Source: Nitrospinales bacterium
GTDB taxonomy: Bacteria; Nitrospinota; Nitrospinia; Nitrospinales; JAJDAT01
Assembly (NCBI GenBank): GCA_038154245.1
Contig: JAYOZP010000002.1
Location: 50,928 to 114,927, forward strand
Length of the DNA: 64,000 bases
Reading direction: 5' to 3'
Part shown: in pieces, positions 24,138-62,183 of the stretch
Numbering within the stretch: the stretch's first letter is position 1
How the letters are laid out: each line of letters starts with the position of its first letter
Translations under genes and position numbers: made by a program
The notes under the pieces: generated by a model
Databases searched by the model: none
What the model was told of the DNA's origin: nothing
The model's input: only the letters and a program-made list of their open reading frames with translations

Positions 24138-24680
24138 ATGACAAATGAATATAACGTTTGGTTTAGTTTGTTTAAAGGAAACGTTCCATCTCCAGTTAAG
24201 GTTTTTGAGAAAAGAGACTGGGTTTTGGAGTCAGGTGTCGCTCTTACCGCGTGTATAATCGGCAAAAGCCATAGGATTTGCTTTAGATCTGGATCTGATT
24301 ATTTAACCGAATTTATTGCCTATTCTATGGACAGTTTTTCCTTTGAACCCGTAGATCAGAGATCTTTAAAGCTAGGAGATTCTCTTGATCGCGAGTTTAT
24401 TCATGGTTCGTTATATTATAAAGTTAAAATAGAAGTCGTAGAACAGGTCTATTTAAATTTTGACGAATTTTTAAAAACGATTACTGATATTGACATTTAT
24501 GAAACGATGTTTCGAGAATTTAAAAACCCATTATTGAATTCTAGTAGTCAGCCATTTACTGGAATCGTTATTGCTCCAGATAAGAATCGAATATTTACAG
24601 CTCATACTTATCCTGAAGGAAATTATTCAGTCATTAGTGTTGTTGAGGCGAATGTATTGGATCATGAGTTTGCGTCATGA
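24138..24680 (+). CDS. hypothetical protein (first gene of the psp-associated cluster)
   Basis: 180-aa ORF. Its stop overlaps the next start (ATGA at 24677-24680). No motif recognised. Confidence 0.55.
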   Translation: MTNEYNVWFSLFKGNVPSPVKVFEKRDWVLESGVALTACIIGKSHRICFRSGSDYLTEFIAYSMDSFSFEPVDQRSLKLGDSLDREFIHGSLYYKVKIEVVEQVYLNFDEFLKTITDIDIYETMFREFKNPLLNSSSQPFTGIVIAPDKNRIFTAHTYPEGNYSVISVVEANVLDHEFAS

Positions 24681-25039
24681 TAAAAAGGCTTTTTCAGATT
24701 GCACGATCTAATATTGGACATTATTGGGATAGAAAAAGCTCTGATTTTGAAGAGCCTCCAATAATCGATCAGAGTTCAAGTTGGGGTAAAAATAATAATG
24801 AAACACCCTATGAAAGCGTTAGGGATCCATTGGCGAAGTATTTTGCTAATTTAGAATTGCCAACAAATGCGAATAGAGGAGAAGTCAAAGCTTCCTGGAA
24901 GCGACTGATGAAAAAATATCATCCCGATTTACATTCAGCCGATACTGAAAAAAGAAAAATTGCCACTGAGTTATCGCAGGGGTTAACGGAGGCTTATAAG
25001 ATTTTAGACAAAGAGTTAGCCAAAAGGGAAAACTCTTAA
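24677..25039 (+). CDS. small J-domain (DnaJ-like) protein
   Basis: 120 aa. The C-terminal half is a J domain: DPLAKYFANLELPTNANRGEVKASWKRLMKKYHPDLH...LTEAYKIL, with the HPD tripeptide. Confidence 0.8.
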   Translation: MIKRLFQIARSNIGHYWDRKSSDFEEPPIIDQSSSWGKNNNETPYESVRDPLAKYFANLELPTNANRGEVKASWKRLMKKYHPDLHSADTEKRKIATELSQGLTEAYKILDKELAKRENS

Positions 25040-25151
25040 AATGTAATTAAAATAAAATCAATCTGAATAACTTATTTTATCTAAGACAAGAATTCCATTA
25101 TATTGGAGACTTCTTAAATTTAATCGGCCTCGAAGCCGACAAGGAGGCAAA

Positions 25152-25544
25152 ATGTCGAATTTTGAGACAGTTAAAGGATACTTATTGGAAATGGGATTTT
25201 CATTTGAAGTCGAAAATTCTGAAGAAGAACTAGTGGTAGTTAACGATCCTGATAGGGGAATACAAAATTTAGTAATAGACTGTGAAGATCCGATTGTTAT
25301 ATTAGAACAAGTCATTTTAGTTTTAGAAAACGACTCGTTAGAAACCTATAAAAGAATACTGCAAATCAATCGCTCTTTGGTGCATGGCGCATTTTGTTTG
25401 AATGAAGAAGGTAATGTTTTATTGTTTCGAGACACGTTGCAACTAGCTAATCTAGACTTAAATGAATTAGAGGGCAGTATCGATGCGCTTAGCTTGGCGG
25501 TAGCCGAAAATGGAACAGAGCTTTTATCTTTTGTGGGAAAATAA
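25152..25544 (+). CDS. YbjN/YjfI-like small acidic protein (PspA-associated type, tentative)
   Basis: 130 aa, preceded by AAGGAGG. Its size, acidity and position directly upstream of a PspA gene mirror E. coli yjfI-yjfJ. Homology not verified. Confidence 0.4.
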   Translation: MSNFETVKGYLLEMGFSFEVENSEEELVVVNDPDRGIQNLVIDCEDPIVILEQVILVLENDSLETYKRILQINRSLVHGAFCLNEEGNVLLFRDTLQLANLDLNELEGSIDALSLAVAENGTELLSFVGK

Positions 25545-25600
25545 AAATAATAAGTAAAAATGATATTAAAAAATCCTTTTTTTGAGAAAGGAGCTTAGTG

Positions 25601-26311
25601 ATGGCTGGATTATTTTCACGAATATTTCGATTAAGTAAAGCGGAAGCTCATTCAATAGTGGACGCTATAGAAGATCCTATTAAGATGACAGAGCAGGGCA
25701 TTAGAGATTTGAAGAAAGATTTACAAGAATCAATGCAAAGCTTAGCTCAGGTAAAAGGCGTTGTTATGCGCTTGCGCAACGACGCTGAAAACCAAAAGAA
25801 AATGTCTGTTTCAATGGAGCGAAAAGCGATGGCTTTATTGCAAAGCGCTCAGGAAGGGAAAGTAGATCCAGGCGAAGCTGATCGGTTAGCGTCTGAGGCT
25901 TTAACTCGCAAAGAAGACGCCGGTCAAAAAGCTTTAAGCCTTTCTAAAGACTTACAGAGCCAGGAAGAAATGGCAAATCAACTTCAGAAAAATGTTGAGA
26001 AATTGCGTTCTACAATTCAAAGGTATGAAAACGACTTAATTACTCTTCGCGCTCGAGCTAAAACAGCCGCTGCAACTCGTAAATTAAACGAACAGATTGC
26101 AAAAGTAGATTCGGGCGGTACAATCGCTATGCTCGAAAAAATGAAGGCAAAGGTTGAGGAAGACGAGTCGCTTGCAAAAGCCTATGGAGAAATTGCCGAT
26201 ACCGGAGAAGATCTTGACGCAAAAATTGATAAAGCGTTACAAGGCGGTTCTGGTAATCTTCCAAAATCGGACGACCTTGCGGCATTGAAAGCCAAAATGG
26301 GAATTTCTTGA
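25601..26311 (+). CDS. pspA: PspA/IM30 (phage shock protein A / Vipp1 family)
   Basis: MAGLFSRIFRLSKAEAHSIVDAIEDPIKMTEQGIRDLKKDL... is the canonical PspA N-terminus, followed by a long coiled coil. ATG 25601 is preferred over the track's GTG 25598 (AAAGGAG ends 7 nt upstream). Confidence 0.9.
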   Translation: MAGLFSRIFRLSKAEAHSIVDAIEDPIKMTEQGIRDLKKDLQESMQSLAQVKGVVMRLRNDAENQKKMSVSMERKAMALLQSAQEGKVDPGEADRLASEALTRKEDAGQKALSLSKDLQSQEEMANQLQKNVEKLRSTIQRYENDLITLRARAKTAAATRKLNEQIAKVDSGGTIAMLEKMKAKVEEDESLAKAYGEIADTGEDLDAKIDKALQGGSGNLPKSDDLAALKAKMGIS

Positions 26312-26312
26312 T

Positions 26313-26864
26313 ATGGCCTGGAATTTTTTTAAGAAAGATAAAGACAAAGAAGATCCAGAAATGGATCTGAATGATTTAGTTCTTTCTAAAATGAAGCCGG
26401 GGTTTCTTGTTGATTATGATATGAAAACATATCAAGTAATTGGGAAAAATTACTATCAATGGGATGAAGGTGGAAGAACTCTTGAATGGGAACTCAAACA
26501 GGGTAGCGAAGTTCTATATTTAGAAAGAGAAGAAGAAGATGGAGAAGTATCTTGGTCGCTTTCTAAAAAGTTAGCTATTGGTGTACTCGAGGGAAATATT
26601 GCCGATCATATAATTGAAAATGAAGATCCACCAGAAACAGTTATTATGGATGGAGTTTCCTTTTATTTTGAGGAAGATGATATTGGAACCTATCACAAAG
26701 GAGATAGCCCAAGAGGACTTCAATTTGTAGTTTGGGATTACTCCGACGACCGTCAAGAAAAATCTTTGTCAATTGAGCAATGGGGGGAAGCTAAATTCGA
26801 TGTTACAGTTGGATTTGAAGTAGAGGAATATCAATTTTCTAATATTTTACCAGGGGCTAATTAA
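26313..26864 (+). CDS. DUF4178-like protein (tentative)
   Basis: 183 aa, starting 1 nt after the pspA stop. The segment FLVDYDMKTYQVIGKNYYQWDEGGRTLEWELK resembles DUF4178 repeats as I remember them. Confidence 0.45.
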   Translation: MAWNFFKKDKDKEDPEMDLNDLVLSKMKPGFLVDYDMKTYQVIGKNYYQWDEGGRTLEWELKQGSEVLYLEREEEDGEVSWSLSKKLAIGVLEGNIADHIIENEDPPETVIMDGVSFYFEEDDIGTYHKGDSPRGLQFVVWDYSDDRQEKSLSIEQWGEAKFDVTVGFEVEEYQFSNILPGAN

Positions 26865-26926: not shown

Positions 26927-28978
26927 CTAGTCTTGTTTTTCTCTAGTTTTTTCCAAGTTTTTCATTGCATTTTTTGTACTTGGATGGTCAAGACCTAATG
27001 TATTTTGAAATAAACCAAGAGCTTTCTCTAAGAATGTTTCAGCAAGAGAATAGTTCCCCATCTTTAAATAAAGAATTCCAATGTTGTTTATCGAGGAAGC
27101 TATTATTGGATCTTGTTTGTCGAAAGCTTTTTCTCTAATTTTTAACGCTTCATTTAAAACAAATTCTGCATCTTTAAAACGGCTTTGTTTGAGATAAAGC
27201 TCGGCTAGATTAGTTTTTGCCGAAGCGATTTCAGGATGTTCTTTACCTAAAAGATTTTCATGAATTTCCAAAGCGTCTGTAAAAAGAGATTCTGCCTCCT
27301 CAAAACGTTCTTGAGTTTTATATAGCAGCGCTAAATTATTTAGCGAGTGCACTACATCTAAATGTTCGTCTCCTAAAAACTTCTCAAAAATTTCCAAAGC
27401 CTCTTTGTATGCTTGTTCAGCTTTTTTGTACTGTCCAATTTCCCTATAGAAATTACCTAGATTGTCCAAAGAAATTGCGACATCAGGATGATCGCTAAAA
27501 TAGATTTTTTTCCATAAACTGACAGTTTCTTGATAAATTTTTTCGGCTTTTTCATGTTGTTGCCTTACCTTATTATTCCAGGCAAGGTTGCTTAGGGTTG
27601 ACGCAACCAGAGCATGTTCATCGCCATAGCAATGGCGATGGACGGAATATGCTTTTTGAAAAAAGTTTTCCGCTTCCGCATAGTCCCCTTGATGATTTAG
27701 ATAATAGCCCACATCGTTACATAGACGCGCTGTTTGGGGGATTTGCAATTTAAATTTATTAATCCAATTTAACATGGTGCGAGCGCTAGGAATTAATTCT
27801 TCGCAAATAGACCAGGAGGTAAAATCTGGATCTGGAAACGCAGATTCAAGAGTTTTTAAAGATTTCTCCGCCCAAAACTCTGGCCTTTCTAGTTTATCTC
27901 TTACAGCTTGTTGAATGGGATTACTCATTTTAAAGCTTTGCTCTCCAATGTTTTGACTCAAGAATGAGTATCGACAAACAATATTAATGACCTTATTCCA
28001 ATGTTGGTTCCAATCGGTTTTTTCGTTTTGGTAGTCTTCTGAAAAATCGATTTCCTCGTTTTCAAGAAAAATTTCTTTGGGAATAAAACGAGAATCAAAG
28101 AAAGAACACAACCGAATCAATTCAACCGCTTCGGGACAATCTTGTTGAATATGATTTAGAGATAAATTGACCGCTACAGATAAAAACTTTGGGTAGTTTT
28201 GGTTTGTTTCTAATTGCGGGAGTATCTCTTTATCTTCGGTCTTAAACAGTAATAAATATTCTATCAGCGTAATTTTTGTTTCTCGAATATACGAACCAAC
28301 TATTTCAATTGCCGCATGAGATCCGTTTAGTAAATCGTAAATTTCGCTTGCTATATTGACAACCTCTTTGGAAGCTTTATTTATATCTTCATCATCGTCA
28401 ATAATGTTCGCTTTTTTTAGAAGATATAAAACTCCTTTGTCTTTTACATTTTGAGTTGGATGGATAGATGATAGATCTGAATTTTTAGTTTTATGGGGTG
28501 TTTTTTTATCTATTTGGTTTTTTGGAGGTTTTTGTTTGGTAAGAAAACAATGGAGTTTTTCGTAATCCGACTCTAAAACGAATTGTTTTGATTCTCGAAA
28601 AATTGGAGGAATAAAGTCAGTGTCATTCTTCGAAACCAGTATAAGAGCAAATTTTTTATTTTTTATTTTGCTATGAATATTTTGCCGATTGAGGATTGGG
28701 CCTTTCCAATTTTGATCTAGATCTTTTCCATCATATTTTGCGCTATTAGAAAATTCGCTTAAATAAAATTCTGTGCAAATAATAAGTATAAAATGTGATT
28801 CATCTACTTTTTTTTGCGTCCACTTCGGCCAGCCAATTTTAGGAGCTTCATTTTCAAATTGATCTATCCAACAATCGATTCCATCGTAGCGAAGTTGATC
28901 TGATAAGGCTAGAACGTGGTCCTTATGATCTTTCGAATCATGACTATAGCTGATGAAGACTTTTACCGAATTTGGCAT
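26927..28978 (-). CDS. TIR-like domain / ARC (winged-helix) remnant / TPR-repeat protein lacking a P-loop NTPase core
   Basis: 683 aa. N-terminus VFISYSHDSKDHKDHVLALSDQLRYDGIDCWIDQFE...FILIICTEFY is TIR/SEFIR-like. The middle has NB-ARC C-terminal landmarks (LNGSHAAIEIVGSYI resembling GLPLA, TLIEYLLLF, LSLNHIQQDCPEAVELIRLCSFF). The C-terminus has 5-6 KLC-type TPRs (SLNNLALLYKTQERFEEAESLF...). No GxxxxGK[ST] anywhere. Confidence 0.7.
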   Translation of the reverse strand: MPNSVKVFISYSHDSKDHKDHVLALSDQLRYDGIDCWIDQFENEAPKIGWPKWTQKKVDESHFILIICTEFYLSEFSNSAKYDGKDLDQNWKGPILNRQNIHSKIKNKKFALILVSKNDTDFIPPIFRESKQFVLESDYEKLHCFLTKQKPPKNQIDKKTPHKTKNSDLSSIHPTQNVKDKGVLYLLKKANIIDDDEDINKASKEVVNIASEIYDLLNGSHAAIEIVGSYIRETKITLIEYLLLFKTEDKEILPQLETNQNYPKFLSVAVNLSLNHIQQDCPEAVELIRLCSFFDSRFIPKEIFLENEEIDFSEDYQNEKTDWNQHWNKVINIVCRYSFLSQNIGEQSFKMSNPIQQAVRDKLERPEFWAEKSLKTLESAFPDPDFTSWSICEELIPSARTMLNWINKFKLQIPQTARLCNDVGYYLNHQGDYAEAENFFQKAYSVHRHCYGDEHALVASTLSNLAWNNKVRQQHEKAEKIYQETVSLWKKIYFSDHPDVAISLDNLGNFYREIGQYKKAEQAYKEALEIFEKFLGDEHLDVVHSLNNLALLYKTQERFEEAESLFTDALEIHENLLGKEHPEIASAKTNLAELYLKQSRFKDAEFVLNEALKIREKAFDKQDPIIASSINNIGILYLKMGNYSLAETFLEKALGLFQNTLGLDHPSTKNAMKNLEKTREKQD

Positions 28979-29581
28979 TAGGAGTTAGGAAAGCTTTTTG
29001 AAAAATATTTCCAAGATACGAAAACTCTTTAAATAAATCAACGGCAAATTGTTACTGGCATATGAAATTGGAAAGCCATAAAGTATTTTTTTAATTTGAG
29101 TAGAAAAATTTATTTGAATCGATAAGCTGATCATTTTATGTCTAACAAAGGTATTTATATTTACGAAAATAGCCTTTAAGAAATGGGAGCAGTTTGTTTC
29201 GAAAATTGATTATATAAAATAAAGAATAAATAAGTGTCGAGATTGCCTTTCATATTACAATGTATTAAAGGGTAAAACCAAAGCGCGTTTGGGGGCAGTT
29301 TAGGCACACTTTGGAAAAATGACCAACCCACCAGTTGTATTGAATGATGCGCTGAAATTAATGAGTTCTCTCAAGGGAGGCTAAAAATTAAGGGGGCAAA
29401 TTGCTTTGCGTGTAGGAGGGACAAACGATTGCGAATATTATTTTTCAGCTCATACCGTTATTGGATAAAATGCCAGTCCTAATCAAGAAGAAATTCATAT
29501 GAATCGAAATGGCGAATCATTTGACGAATTCCTTTAGTTTTTTTCGAAAAGTTATTGAAAAAGGGGATGTGTTCTTAATAA

Positions 29582-29687
29582 TTAAGGGGGTCTCTAATAA
29601 TTCGAAATTTTAGCTTGAGGCAACTCGCTTGCCTTTTGTTTGCAAAGGCAGCTCGTAGCCAAATTCAATTTTTAGAGGTTCCCTTAA
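29582..29687 (+). repeat. ~106-nt inverted-repeat element, copy C
   Basis: TTAAGGGGGTCTCTAA (29582-29597) pairs with TTAGAGGTTCCCTTAA (29672-29687): 13 Watson-Crick plus 3 G-T pairs. 20 nt from the integrase stop. Confidence 0.9.
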
Positions 29688-29707
29688 GTTTGATAGAAAA
29701 GAAATTT

Positions 29708-30559
29708 TTATGCAGATTTTTTTGACGCTTCTGAATCGGGATTTGTCATTTTTGCATAGAAGTTGGTGCTCTCGCGCCTTGAGTGTCCCATGAGGTTTTG
29801 AACTGTAGGAACTTTTGCTCCATGTTGTAGTAAAAAAGCGGCAAAAGAGTGACGTAAAGAATGGGGAGTAGCATTTTTCTCTACACCCGATATTTCTAGG
29901 GCCGCTTTAAAATATTTTGCGAAAGCGCGAGTAGTTAATTTGCCCCCTCGTTCGCTAGGAAATAAATAATCCCCGGGTTCTTTTTTACCAATTTGACGGA
30001 GAATCGCGTCGGACAAGCTTCTAGAAAAAATAGTGGTTCTTCCTTTTCGTCGCTCGTTTTGTCCTTTTACGAATAGATTGTTCGTTTTCAAATTTATGTC
30101 TTTTACGAGAACTTCTACAAGCTCAGAAACTCGAAGTCCAGCGCTGTAAGCTAATTCAATCATTAACCTGTGTTTTAAGTTTTCAGCCGATAAAGCTATT
30201 CTGCGGACTTCTTCAAGAGTTAGTAGAACTGGAGTTCTTTCTTTCTTTTGCGGTCGTTCTAATTCATTCAACGGAAATTTTTGCCCAAACACTTCTACCC
30301 ATAGAAAACGTAAAGCGTTAATTGCTTGGTCGATGGTAGATCGGGATTTTTTTGTAGAATTTAGATGCCTTAGATAATCTTCCAAATCGCGATTAGATGC
30401 CTCATGTGGGTCCCGTGGCAAAATAAAAAAGAAAAAATTACGAAGTTGCCCCAAATAAGCTTTAATAGTTTGATCTCGATATTTCCGAATATTTAATCTT
30501 TCTTCAATAACTTCATATGGCTTGGAGGCAAACTGAGGAAAAGGAAGCGATGCGTCCAT
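29708..30559 (-). CDS. tyrosine recombinase / phage-type integrase (XerC/D-like)
   Basis: 283 aa. Catalytic landmarks AGLRVSEL (R), HSLRHSFA (HxxR), LMGHSRRESTNFYAKM (H...Y). SAM-like N-domain. Confidence 0.85.
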   Translation of the reverse strand: MDASLPFPQFASKPYEVIEERLNIRKYRDQTIKAYLGQLRNFFFFILPRDPHEASNRDLEDYLRHLNSTKKSRSTIDQAINALRFLWVEVFGQKFPLNELERPQKKERTPVLLTLEEVRRIALSAENLKHRLMIELAYSAGLRVSELVEVLVKDINLKTNNLFVKGQNERRKGRTTIFSRSLSDAILRQIGKKEPGDYLFPSERGGKLTTRAFAKYFKAALEISGVEKNATPHSLRHSFAAFLLQHGAKVPTVQNLMGHSRRESTNFYAKMTNPDSEASKKSA

Positions 30560-61253: not shown

Positions 61254-62183
61254 TCATCGTTTCCGAGCGATAGTATTTTTTGTTTCAATAGCCTGGATCG
61301 ACTCTTTTTCGCGTTTGCTTAGTTTTTGATAAATTTCTAAGAGAGCTCTATGAATGGCGGGATTGTTTTGATCTAAATCTAGAGCTGTCCAAAATCTAAT
61401 AGCGGCTTTATTGAAATAGCCATTTTGTTTATATAAATCTCCCAGTTGGACCCAAATTTCAGGTCGATCTGGTTGTAATAAGGAAATCCTTTCGTATAAA
61501 GCGATTGCTTCCATAGCGTTTTCGCGTCGTTTTTCTTCTTTTGCGAGTTCTTCTAAGTAGGTTGGTTCTTTTGGGTTTAATTCAGCCGCTCGTTTTAAAT
61601 GAATTTGGGCTTTATCAAAGGCATTTTGTTTAATAAAGAATTTTCCTAATCGATAATGAGTTGGTTCATGTTTTTCATCAATATTTAAAGCTTTTTTATA
61701 GAATTTTTCGGACTCTGCGGTTTTGCCTAAGCGTTCTAAATATTCTCCTAAAACGCTTGCTGGGTTTGGGTTATCGTTATCGGCCTCAACAGCAATTCGC
61801 AATTGGCTTAATGCTTCTTCAGTTTTTCCCTGTTCCATGTATATAGCGGCAAGATTAATTCTACTGGCTGCGTCTTCACGCGTCGCTAAAACTTTTTTAT
61901 ACAACTCTTCTGCCTTAAGCGTTTTTCCTTGGTCTTGGTAAGCGACCGCAAGGTTATACGATGCAAAATGATCTTCGGGGTGAGATATTAGCGCTAGCTT
62001 ATACTGTTCTATTGCCTTGCTATATTCTCCTTGGTCATAGTAATCAACGCCGCGATTGAAATGGCTCTCAATTGGAGCCGGAATAACAACGCATGCGGAA
62101 AATAATAAAGATATCAAAAATATTAATAAAAACCGTAAGGCGTATAAGAAACTTATTTTTTGAAATTTTTTAAGCGTGTGCAT
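61254..62183 (-). CDS. TPR-repeat lipoprotein
   Basis: 309 aa with lipobox LFSAC and 6-7 TPR units. Its start overlaps the mlaD stop (TAATG). Confidence 0.7.
   Translation of the reverse strand: MHTLKKFQKISFLYALRFLLIFLISLLFSACVVIPAPIESHFNRGVDYYDQGEYSKAIEQYKLALISHPEDHFASYNLAVAYQDQGKTLKAEELYKKVLATREDAASRINLAAIYMEQGKTEEALSQLRIAVEADNDNPNPASVLGEYLERLGKTAESEKFYKKALNIDEKHEPTHYRLGKFFIKQNAFDKAQIHLKRAAELNPKEPTYLEELAKEEKRRENAMEAIALYERISLLQPDRPEIWVQLGDLYKQNGYFNKAAIRFWTALDLDQNNPAIHRALLEIYQKLSKREKESIQAIETKNTIARKR

Follow-up and report, generated by a model that had tools for sequence, protein, structure and literature searches.

The gene at 26927-28978 lies on the reverse strand of the window (the whole stretch of DNA analyzed, 64 kb in length) and belongs to a marine Nitrospinota bacterium. 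The open reading frame begins with ATG and encodes a protein of 683 aa, to which P0001 is identical. Its sub-feature coordinates were checked by translation and are as follows.

26927..28978, minus strand: complete CDS of 683 aa plus stop, in the order SEFIR, linker, HD1 (ARC1), WHD (ARC2), connector, TPR (ORF list; P0001 and six orthologs)
28538..28963, minus strand: SEFIR domain, aa 6-147, five-stranded alpha/beta fold (Pfam, PADLOC, PDB, AF2, omega)
28703..28729, minus strand: degenerate version of the SEFIR signature loop, GKDLDQNWK at aa 84-92, in place of canonical G-x-G-V-x-[WYF]-E (homolog alignment)
28454..28537, minus strand: disordered Lys/Pro/Asn-rich linker, aa 148-175, where the P-loop NBD was lost (alignment gap, tblastn breakpoints, pLDDT)
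28214..28453, minus strand: HD1/ARC1 helical domain, aa 176-255, including the acidic loop IIDDDEDI (alignment, AF2, Foldseek)
28289..28324, minus strand: GLPL-motif relic GSHAAIEIVGSY, aa 219-230 (comparison with 156 canonical relatives)
27884..28213, minus strand: winged-helix domain WHD/ARC2, aa 256-365, Pfam DUF7779 (PF25000, AF2, Foldseek)
27911..27931, minus strand: relic of the MHD-type motif, KMSNPIQ at aa 350-356, in place of canonical [IL]HRLVQ (comparison with 156 relatives)
27749..27883, minus strand: helical WHD-TPR connector, aa 366-410 (conserved residues, pLDDT>90)
26930..27748, minus strand: TPR array of the kinesin-light-chain type (TPR_12/TPR_10), aa 411-683 (Pfam, Foldseek, omega)
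28979..29058, minus strand: upstream block of 80 nt, near-invariant across four genomes (DNA alignment)

The locus is part of the core genome, being collinear at ~80% nucleotide identity in four Nitrospinota genomes over a region of ~25 kb. The neighbors (PspA, DUF4178, YbjN, DnaJ, a tyrosine recombinase, and an ABC exporter) are housekeeping genes, and neither a defense island nor a mobile context was detected around the gene. Likewise, no phage homologs were found, and plasmid matches were partial and restricted to SEFIR, none being full length. Within the upstream block, the hexamers TTGATT (29041-29036) and TATCTT (29018-29013), 17 nt apart, agree with the sigma-70 consensus at 8 of 12 positions, which is below the scan threshold; they are promoter-like and may function as a promoter. 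Scans for promoters and terminators gave results no better than those for shuffled sequences, and an Rfam scan of the window returned nothing.

The N-terminal domain, which a preliminary description of the sequence had called TIR/SEFIR-type, is specifically a SEFIR domain rather than a generic TIR domain. It matches Pfam SEFIR (PF08357, residues 6-145) with an E value of 1.1e-16, compared with a weaker 4.8e-10 for TIR_2 (the Pfam STIR clan includes both SEFIR and TIR). Residues 5-323 match the PADLOC bSEFIR model PDLC03957 (E=1.1e-22), and a PDB search matched the N-terminal domain to the Bacillus SEFIR crystal structures 5y8e/5y8f (E about 5e-6). In the AF2 model of the full 683-aa protein (pLDDT 86.7), the SEFIR strands lie at residues 6-10, 35-38, 63-68, 110-114, and 131-134.

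The preliminary description had also reported that the region from Walker A to RNBS-B is absent and that a Lys/Pro linker stands in its place, and profile HMM, regular expression, alignment gap, and tblastn results all bear this out. The Walker A pattern GxxxxGK[ST] is absent from the protein and from its six orthologs, no Pfam NB-ARC or AAA match was found in the protein, and an NBD HMM matched 0 of the 7 family members, while 122 of 149 relatives have a full NBD. Canonical SEFIR-NB-ARC-TPR relatives carry ~155-170 extra residues with Walker A, Walker B, and RNBS-B, seen as ~200 extra alignment columns (GLGGIGKT, LLILDN, LLTSR/ITTR) located exactly between the end of SEFIR and 'GVLYLLKK'. In tblastn searches with the canonical protein P0008, residues 1-145 and 314-660 mapped onto the gene, and residues 146-313 had no counterpart. 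Six-frame searches detected no NBD-coding sequence in the 64-kb window or, with a positive control included, in three 22-kb orthologous loci. In the AF2 model, residues 148 to 400 form no alpha/beta fold, and linker residues 151-175 have pLDDT<50. The whole alpha/beta P-loop NTPase core was thus removed by a single ancestral in-frame deletion, leaving a linker of ~30 aa in its place. Of the hallmarks of STAND proteins, HD1 and WHD are present, as is a C-terminal repeat sensor domain (TPR, 411-683). Sequence, profile, and structure support an NLR/STAND-like effector-ARC-TPR protein that lacks the P-loop NTPase core, for which ATP-gated switching would be impossible. Neither an intact P-loop NTPase domain nor an N terminus unlike TIR was found.

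The ARC and winged-helix landmarks named in the preliminary description all align to canonical motifs: NGSHAAIEIVGSYI to GLPLALDQAGAYI, LIEYLLLF to L..YL.LY, and P.A..LIRLCSFF..IP to P.AA.LLRLCAFL.PD.IP. HD1/ARC1 as a whole aligns to 'EGILFLLRRSG...GLPLALEQAGAYI...YL.LY' of canonical NB-ARC proteins and is modeled as four helices with pLDDT>90. The acidic stretch IIDDDEDI, previously suggested to be a Walker B relic, instead falls, in the alignment, on the loop that follows the first ARC1 helix of canonical proteins ('AITKKQTIEEA'); their true Walker B lies inside the deleted block. Residues 278-367 match DUF7779 (PF25000, E=7e-7), which accompanies NB-ARC (PF00931) in canonical relatives, and the modeled WHD consists of helices and a beta-hairpin (341-350). 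Full-length Foldseek searches against the PDB returned TPR proteins only and were uninformative on the middle module, which was resolved by modeling residues 170-410 separately (pLDDT 90.4). With this model, the HD1-WHD module (176-365) matched only NB-ARC STAND proteins over ~200-230 columns, namely, Apaf-1 (3sfz/1z6t; probability 1.00, TMq 0.53-0.59), CED-4, plant NRC1/2 and RPP1, and MalT. As phmmer searches with just the ARC-WH segment yield 2,418 relatives at E<=1e-3 (627 at E<=1e-10), the likeness of the middle module is far beyond chance. Connector residues W369, F381-P382, W389, and C392, modeled with pLDDT>90, are conserved across family members and canonical relatives alike.

The C-terminal repeats are of the kinesin-light-chain type, as first described. 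Pfam TPR_12/TPR_10 matches extend from about residue 400 to 680 (TPR_12, E=2e-68), and the top Foldseek matches are the TPR domains of KLC1/KLC2 at 33-37% identity (KLC1 7ai4, E=2.8e-12, 36%). The TPR protein of the FxSxx-COOH system (NF040586) scored 205.7 bits, below the NCBIfam cut-off of 300, and this similarity was restricted to the TPRs (residues 414-679).

Orthologs lacking the NBD form a distinct family. The six orthologs (679-683 aa) share 62-69% identity over residues 1-400, and the seven intact ORFs fall into seven clusters at 90% identity, drawn from NCBI, JGI, ENA, and Logan assemblies that are independent of each other. The family was monophyletic in 100 of 100 bootstraps and nested among canonical SEFIR-NB-ARC-TPR proteins, of which P0104 is the nearest relative; this monophyly points to one origin of the switch-less family. 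Whole-gene omega was 0.12-0.17 at a saturating dS of about 1. The folded domains ranged from 0.07 to 0.27 (SEFIR, 0.17-0.19; HD1/ARC1, 0.09-0.24; WHD, 0.10-0.27), with the TPR array being the most constrained part of the protein (0.07-0.11), and only the linker drifts, with near-neutral values of 0.36-1.16 (analyzed segment, aa 149-181).

Although the folds are conserved, the motifs that contact nucleotide in STAND/NB-ARC proteins have degenerated. In the GLPL motif, L220, P221, L222, and Q226 are present in 144, 153, 152, and 151 of 156 canonical relatives, respectively, and all four are replaced in every one of the seven family members (P221 by H/Q/Y), while G219, A223, and Y230 of this region are kept. 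In the MHD-type motif, His352 (153 of 156 relatives) is S/N in 7/7 members and Arg353 (142 of 156) is N/G/S, with Q356 kept. The nucleotide-contacting GLPL Pro and MHD-type His are therefore missing throughout the family.

The SEFIR signature G-x-G-V-x-[WYF]-E, a feature of bSEFIR, is likewise not present in the protein. Position 92 is Glu in 100/100 other bacterial homologs, in which it is the sole invariant residue beyond the N-terminal motifs, and the Bacillus structure 5y8e retains Glu at this column. In the family it is Lys in six members and Leu in one. The flanking glycines are also gone: G88 (98/100 homologs) is D/N and G86 (76/100) is D/N/S. Loop 80-94 is predicted to be disordered (pLDDT<50), and no substitute acidic residue is conserved in it, as positions 86 and 88 vary between D, N, and S across the family. 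Human Act1 has Ile instead of the Glu and His instead of the second Gly at the same columns. From its invariance and its loss in Act1, the E92-equivalent Glu is probably the catalytic residue of SEFIR NADases, and the 26927-28978 protein is most probably not an NADase. In profile-to-PDB alignments, the SEFIR Glu could not be matched to the catalytic Glu of TIR domains, since the TIR matches break off around profile position 72-77 and do not reach the column of the Glu. SEFIR is reported to act in defense by depleting NAD+ (10.1101/2024.02.11.579819; 10.64898/2026.09.04.749371). None of the papers that we found on SEFIR NADase activity names the catalytic residue. The remaining invariant SEFIR residues are kept in the family, among them Asp39, which is probably equivalent to D40 of bSEFIR. 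The bSEFIR D40A substitution, predicted to break SEFIR-SEFIR contacts, abolishes defense (10.1101/2022.05.11.491447).

Several known systems resemble parts of this protein. The canonical SEFIR-NB-ARC-TPR proteins (P0008 and its tandem neighbor, P0102-P0106) have the same domain order and homologous parts at 35-40% identity, but they possess the NBD (GLGGIGKT, LLILDN, RNBS-B), the GLPL motif, [IL]HRLVQ, and the SEFIR Glu, all four of which the family lacks. The defense protein bSEFIR (Millman et al.; PADLOC PDLC03957) shares an N-terminal SEFIR domain scoring above TIR and the invariant Asp. However, bSEFIR depletes NAD+ (10.1101/2024.02.11.579819) and is enriched in defense islands, whereas the gene studied here has lost the Glu/Gly loop and sits at a core locus. 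Apaf-1, CED-4, and plant NLRs superpose on HD1 and WHD (TMq up to 0.59 for Apaf-1; also NRC1/2, RPP1, and MalT) but contain a P-loop NBD and are activated by nucleotide exchange or hydrolysis. Act1/TRAF3IP2 and the IL-17 receptors use the SEFIR fold for nonenzymatic homotypic scaffolding, and Act1 also lacks the bacterial Glu; these proteins have other partners, carry SEFIR in other domain contexts (U-box/TRAF-binding regions or receptor tails), and have no ARC-TPR module, and direct descent is not indicated.

The closest precedent is plant NRG1C, which retains only WHD and LRR and inhibits NRG1A/B through sequestration (PMC12177489). Arabidopsis NRG1C and Nicotiana benthamiana NRG2 lack the NBD, are conserved, do not oligomerize, and act as competitive inhibitors of full-length paralogs (PMC12177489; 10.1101/2021.01.27.428547). 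As in NRG1C, the NBD is gone here and a WHD and repeat domain are kept under selection; an inhibitory role would follow by analogy. NRG1C differs in being an N-terminal truncation that lost both effector and NB regions and ends in LRRs, whereas the bacterial protein arose by an internal deletion, keeps a Glu-less SEFIR domain and HD1, and ends in TPRs.

The best explanation, to which we give an even chance, is that the protein is a domesticated, switch-less, nonenzymatic SEFIR-TPR scaffold that most likely tunes or dampens canonical SEFIR-NLR NADases. Its ancestor would have been an anti-phage SEFIR-NB-ARC-TPR protein of the NLR/STAND type, and the observed loss of the GLPL Pro, the MHD-type His, and the SEFIR Glu and Gly loop would have followed deletion of the NBD, while purifying selection continued to act on the SEFIR, HD1, WHD, and TPR folds and on D39 of the SEFIR surface. 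Because the nucleotide-sensing and presumed catalytic elements are lost, the protein would have no ATP-gated switch and most probably no NADase activity, and most likely it would work as a constitutive scaffold. The conserved TPR solenoid may have a stable ligand, either a protein or a peptide, HD1-WHD could serve as a rigid spacer, and the catalytically silent SEFIR domain would engage other SEFIR domains by homotypic contacts. Canonical SEFIR-NLR NADases, such as two tandem paralogs in a sister genome, could then be damped by capping of SEFIR assemblies or by competition for ligand. Simple competition for the same ligand is argued against by the TPRs, as these are only ~37-41% identical to those of the canonical paralogs. 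Of the options left by the preliminary description (another activation mechanism, a decoy, an adaptor, or a decaying gene), decoy or adaptor is thus the best supported, an active NADase is disfavored, and decay is contradicted by selection, synteny, and the orthologs.

The two paralogs (P0008 and its neighbor) were found in OFTM166, a Nitrospinia MAG that also carries an NBD-less ortholog. Among the three species-representative genomes with the NBD-less gene, this is the only one in which canonical paralogs were detected; one other has a 92-codon remnant (L016, initially taken for a canonical-type paralog), and none was detected in the third or in the 64-kb window. Co-occurrence thus does not support a dedicated regulator of the paralogs, with the count limited by MAG incompleteness.

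A nucleotide switch is the defining feature of NLR/STAND proteins, as NAD+ cleavage is of bacterial SEFIR/TIR domains; this clade has lost the former and probably the latter, yet it is under purifying selection across species. It offers a natural experiment on what an HD1-WHD-TPR chassis can do without its NBD, on whether NAD+ cleavage is catalyzed by the invariant SEFIR Glu, and on the conversion of enzymatic immune domains into nonenzymatic adaptors or inhibitors, for which the only other documented cases are eukaryotic (Act1/IL-17R SEFIR, plant NRG1C). We tentatively raise the possibility, which we consider less probable than its opposite, that the protein is the first prokaryotic regulatory truncated NLR, a nucleotide-independent, catalytically silent adaptor or inhibitor of canonical SEFIR-NLR NADase immunity. 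In that case, NRG1C-type inhibitor logic and Act1-like nonenzymatic use of SEFIR would have arisen independently in bacteria, and the family would be a living model for the transition of enzymatic bacterial TIR/SEFIR effectors to pure signaling adaptors. Modulation of canonical SEFIR-NLRs would add negative regulation by truncated paralogs to the bacterial immunity repertoire.

As the gene sits at a core-genome locus among housekeeping neighbors and outside any defense island, its function may no longer be immune. Under this somewhat unlikely alternative, it is a repurposed housekeeping scaffold whose TPRs, and perhaps SEFIR, act as interaction modules in a core process. The stable collinear position in four species without defense genes nearby, the lack of phage or plasmid occurrence, and the canonical paralogs being dispensable or absent in some genomes are consistent with such a role, and the strong constraint on the TPRs is what a host ligand that stays fixed would impose, as opposed to a fast-evolving phage ligand. 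However, the gene's omega is 3 to 5 times higher than the 0.02-0.07 of most flanking core genes, and the kept D39 and entire SEFIR fold suggest that SEFIR-SEFIR engagement still matters. One possible version would tie the protein to the adjacent convergent PspA/IM30-DUF4178-YbjN-DnaJ envelope-stress cluster, but this synteny is uninformative, as collinearity extends over all of the ~25 kb and the genes converge rather than being co-transcribed.

The reading as a regulatory scaffold must also be weighed against an abortive-infection NADase, in which TPR-ligand binding would drive nucleotide-independent SEFIR oligomerization and NAD+ would be depleted by a different catalytic arrangement. The PADLOC bSEFIR model matches the protein, which keeps the SEFIR fold and the majority of the invariant residues. 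[quoted passage not shown] We consider this alternative improbable because the Glu invariant in 100/100 bacterial SEFIRs and the Gly-rich loop are replaced, leaving a loop that is predicted to be disordered and has no conserved acidic substitute. Furthermore, a defense-island context is absent, and in NLRs the HD1/WHD surfaces used for oligomerization ordinarily require the NBD.

Split and paired NLRs occur in other lineages, and the retained, constrained HD1 and WHD could in principle receive a separately encoded NBD protein in trans. This is very improbable here, since NBD sequence is absent from the window and the three orthologous loci, and loss of the GLPL Pro and MHD His in all members would be unexpected if a nucleotide-bound NBD still docked.

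A pseudogenized NLR or a chimeric contig would fit the large internal deletion, the degenerate motifs, and the truncated paralog remnant in a related MAG, but this is scarcely credible given purifying selection at dS about 1 that acts on each domain to its own degree and leaves the linker neutral, conserved synteny, seven intact orthologs from independent assemblies, the conserved upstream block, and a confident AF2 fold. Among the 150 best cluster representatives, 19 other relatives were NBD-less. All but one of these begin no earlier than the RNBS-B/ARC1 boundary and resemble truncated gene calls; the exception is P0185, a TIR stub fused to ARC1.

An open reading frame encoding a 683-aa protein was confirmed where the preliminary description had placed it:

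26927-28978, minus strand: coding sequence in the ORF list, 683 aa

Pfam assigned SEFIR (PF08357) to aa 6-145 (E=1.1e-16) with TIR_2 scoring weaker, so that the proposed TIR/SEFIR-type N-terminus is specifically SEFIR. DUF7779 (PF25000) was matched at aa 278-367 (E=7e-7), TPR_12/TPR_10 repeats gave a strong array reaching from aa ~400 to the C-terminal end, and no NB-ARC or AAA family matched the protein. The PADLOC bSEFIR model covered aa 5-323 (E=1.1e-22), and the Bacillus SEFIR domains 5y8e and 5y8f were the only solved structures reached by sequence search.

The full-length AlphaFold2 model, built on a 55-sequence alignment (mean pLDDT of 86.7), comprised a five-stranded alpha/beta SEFIR domain with a low-confidence loop (80-94), a disordered linker (151-175), four helices (174-252), a helical domain with a beta-hairpin (264-361), and TPR helices to the end, and contained no second alpha/beta domain. 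It matched kinesin light chain TPRs (33-37% identity), as the first reading of the C-terminus had anticipated. When aa 170-410 were modeled separately (pLDDT 90.4, pTM 0.87), PDB matches were confined to NB-ARC-class STAND proteins: Apaf-1 (3sfz and 1z6t; prob 1.00, TMq 0.53-0.59, ~210-230 columns), CED-4, NRC2, NRC1 NB-ARC, RPP1, and MalT. Because of this restriction, the predicted middle module, described earlier as ARC/winged-helix, is a genuine HD1(ARC1)+WHD(ARC2).

The HD1-WHD arrangement in the aa 170-410 model fitted inactive or closed states in the PDB (ADP-bound Apaf-1 1z6t, TMq 0.57-0.58; resting NRC2 8rfh, 0.52) more closely than oligomers in the active state (apoptosome 5juy, 0.35; CED-4 apoptosome, ~0.35), a preference that may come from bias in the model or from a geometry frozen in a "closed-like" state.

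Searching with aa 1-400 returned the identical protein and six orthologues that share its Pfam content (679-683 aa; 62-69% identical across the query), and more distant matches added PF00931 NB-ARC (P0008-P0011, P0017, and P0020). In a joint alignment, the SEFIR domains of both groups aligned along their whole length, after which the NB-ARC-bearing proteins held ~200 extra columns containing FTGR..., Walker A GLGG[IV]GKT, Walker B LL[IV]LDN, and RNBS-B [IL]TTR/LTSR. Alignment resumed at EGILFLLRRSG of the canonical proteins (KGVLYLLKKAN here) and continued in all sequences through GLPLALEQAGAYI, the DUF7779 winged helix, and the TPRs. The same breakpoints were recovered at the DNA level by tblastn: aa 1-145 and 314-660 of P0008, a canonical SEFIR-NB-ARC-TPR protein, mapped to the gene and aa 146-313 had no counterpart. 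In the 822-aa neighbor of P0008, aa 1-141 and aa 296-815 matched contiguous stretches of the window DNA. The NBD columns were made into an HMM, and both this HMM and a Walker A regular expression were negative in 7/7 family members. When the ARC-WH segment was searched exhaustively with phmmer (2,418 matches at E<=1e-3), 122 of the other 149 best representatives were positive for the HMM over its full length. Among the best 150 50%-identity cluster representatives, only the family's cluster combined an intact N-terminal domain with an excised NBD. Six-frame translations of the 64-kb window and of three orthologous 22-kb loci gave no match to the HMM, which did detect both NBDs of a positive-control locus (E ~1e-62 to 1e-66). 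The NTPase core reported missing from Walker A to RNBS-B has thus been lost internally, and the folds of the remaining domains are preserved. IIDDDEDI, suggested earlier as a Walker B relic, aligned to the loop following the first ARC1 helix and was ruled out as such.

The protein clearly descends from SEFIR-NB-ARC-TPR proteins. In a neighbor-joining tree on SEFIR+ARC-WH columns, the family formed a single clade in 100/100 bootstraps; its long stem arises among the canonical proteins, with no sister group singled out, and this monophyly supports one ancestral deletion of the NBD.

Nucleotide-contact motifs were compared between the ARC-WH modules of 156 canonical relatives and the seven family members. 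The GLPL motif is degenerate in the family, with L220 (144/156 relatives), P221 (153/156), L222 (152/156), and Q226 (151/156) all replaced. In the MHD-type motif [IL]HRLVQ, His352 (153/156) has become S/N and Arg353 (142/156) N/G/S. The structural positions Y241, C291, F293, I299-P300, W369, F381-P382, W389, and C392 are kept, and it appears from these columns that everything contacting a nucleotide was lost in a coordinated fashion.

SEFIR has been described as an NAD+-cleaving defense domain (10.1101/2024.02.11.579819; 10.64898/2026.09.04.749371). In 100/100 other SEFIR homologues, residue 92 is a Glu that belongs to the motif G-x-G-V-x-[WYF]-E (G88 in 98/100); family members carry Lys (6/7) or Leu (1/7) instead, with other residues in place of both loop glycines. 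In a profile of canonical domains, the crystallized Bacillus SEFIR retains the Glu (GVGTE), and the nonenzymatic human adaptor Act1/TRAF3IP2 has Ile at this column and His at the second Gly. As the literature searched names no SEFIR catalytic residue and TIR alignments to the profile end before the Glu column, E92 is a presumed catalytic residue. Residues F8, S10, Y11, H13, D14, S15, H18, D39, C68, T69, Y72, and P124 are kept. Defense by bSEFIR is reported to be lost on D40A, a change predicted to break contacts between SEFIR domains (10.1101/2022.05.11.491447); D39, the sole invariant Asp in its region, is probably the equivalent residue.

A species-representative genome scan located the orthologues in Nitrospinota/Nitrospinia MAGs, and the family occurs only within a small clade of marine bacteria that have not been cultured. 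Three of those MAGs are collinear with the ~25 kb surrounding the gene, at ~80% DNA identity. Nei-Gojobori estimates across four orthologues gave a whole-gene omega of 0.12-0.17 (dS ~0.9-1.5), distributed as follows:

SEFIR: omega 0.17-0.19
Linker: omega 0.36-1.16
ARC1: omega 0.09-0.24
WHD: omega 0.10-0.27
TPR: omega 0.07-0.11, most constrained

This purifying selection and the collinearity argue against the decaying gene considered in the preliminary description. As flanking core genes mostly had omega values of 0.02-0.07, the gene is constrained, yet among the region's faster-evolving genes, like the GDSL and DnaJ-domain genes. Its surroundings include the following:

24138-26864, plus strand: conserved envelope-stress-like cluster, downstream of and convergent to the gene
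28979-29058, minus strand: 80-nt block directly 5' of the ATG, nearly invariant in four Nitrospinota genomes
29708-30559, minus strand: tyrosine recombinase (Phage_integrase + SAM_4), upstream

The upstream block contains TTGATT-17 nt-TATCTT and is a putative promoter; no obvious Shine-Dalgarno sequence precedes the start codon (CTAACTCCTAATG). The remainder of the 730-bp ORF-free spacer (28979-29707), up to the recombinase gene, is poorly conserved. The downstream cluster encodes a hypothetical 180-aa protein, a DnaJ-domain protein, a YbjN/CesT_Tir_1 chaperone-like protein, PspA/IM30, and DUF4178, with very low omega (0.01-0.04) for the PspA, YbjN, and DUF4178 genes. Because it shows 92-96% identity between species and an omega of 0.02-0.04, the recombinase behaves like a housekeeping Xer-type enzyme, not like a mobile-element integrase; an ABC exporter and an HTH protein lie beyond it. 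No Rfam families were found in the window, the protein's architecture was absent from phage records, and plasmids gave only SEFIR-only partial matches. A second TPR-coding region (~61395-62072, minus strand) is weakly similar (28-33% identity) to canonical SEFIR-NLR TPRs.

Canonical genes, or a remnant of one, were found in two of the related MAGs:

L001 10001-11986 and 12369-14837 (JAJDAT010000048.1, MAG OFTM166): tandem canonical SEFIR-NB-ARC-TPR genes, 661 and 822 aa
L016 226-501 (MAG binchicken_co46_550): canonical-gene remnant, 92 codons of a P0008-type SEFIR

OFTM166 carries its NBD-less orthologue on a separate contig (L002), and its tandem proteins, with Walker A and SEFIR Glu intact, are candidate partners or targets of the NBD-less protein. 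The remnant stops just ahead of the Gly-loop/Glu region and is the sole trace of such a gene in its MAG, which also holds the orthologue on L004. The genome of L003 yielded no such gene. It appears that canonical paralogues come and go while the NBD-less gene is retained.

Lacking P-loop, GLPL, and MHD, the protein falls outside STAND as defined and would be unable to act as an ATP-gated switch; it also departs from bSEFIR in conserved signature and context, and is probably not an NADase. It most likely works like a truncated NLR or adaptor SEFIR, as a constitutive scaffold whose TPRs would bind a stable ligand and whose SEFIR would engage other SEFIR domains. Its most likely role would be modulating canonical SEFIR-NLR NADases, by capping their SEFIR assemblies or competing for ligand, a logic that would follow the plant WHD-LRR-only inhibitor NRG1C (PMC12177489). 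A nonimmune scaffold remains a serious rival because co-occurrence with canonical paralogues is patchy and the context is core genome. A nucleotide-independent NADase is less likely; a split NLR with its NBD in trans is less likely again, no partner NTPase lying near the gene, and a pseudogene is the least likely. No account of a bacterial NLR relative lacking its NBD turned up in the literature searched, whose coverage was incomplete. The family would be a natural "switch-off, catalysis-off" derivative of an NLR, clean and stable in evolution, and it yields hypotheses open to direct testing.

Two further proteins have unusual arrangements. P0107 (712 aa) carries ARC1-WHD, then directly a second, complete NB-ARC (FTDRE...GLGGVGKTQ...) and another ARC-WHD; it looks like a tandem-NOD arrangement with a seemingly truncated N-terminus. 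In P0185 (480 aa), a TIR N-terminal stub (KLFYSYAPSDENLRKELEDHL) is joined straight to ARC1-WHD-TPR with no NBD. Here the NBD may have been deleted independently, in an unrelated lineage of TIR-NB-ARC-TPR proteins, or the gene call may be an artifact.
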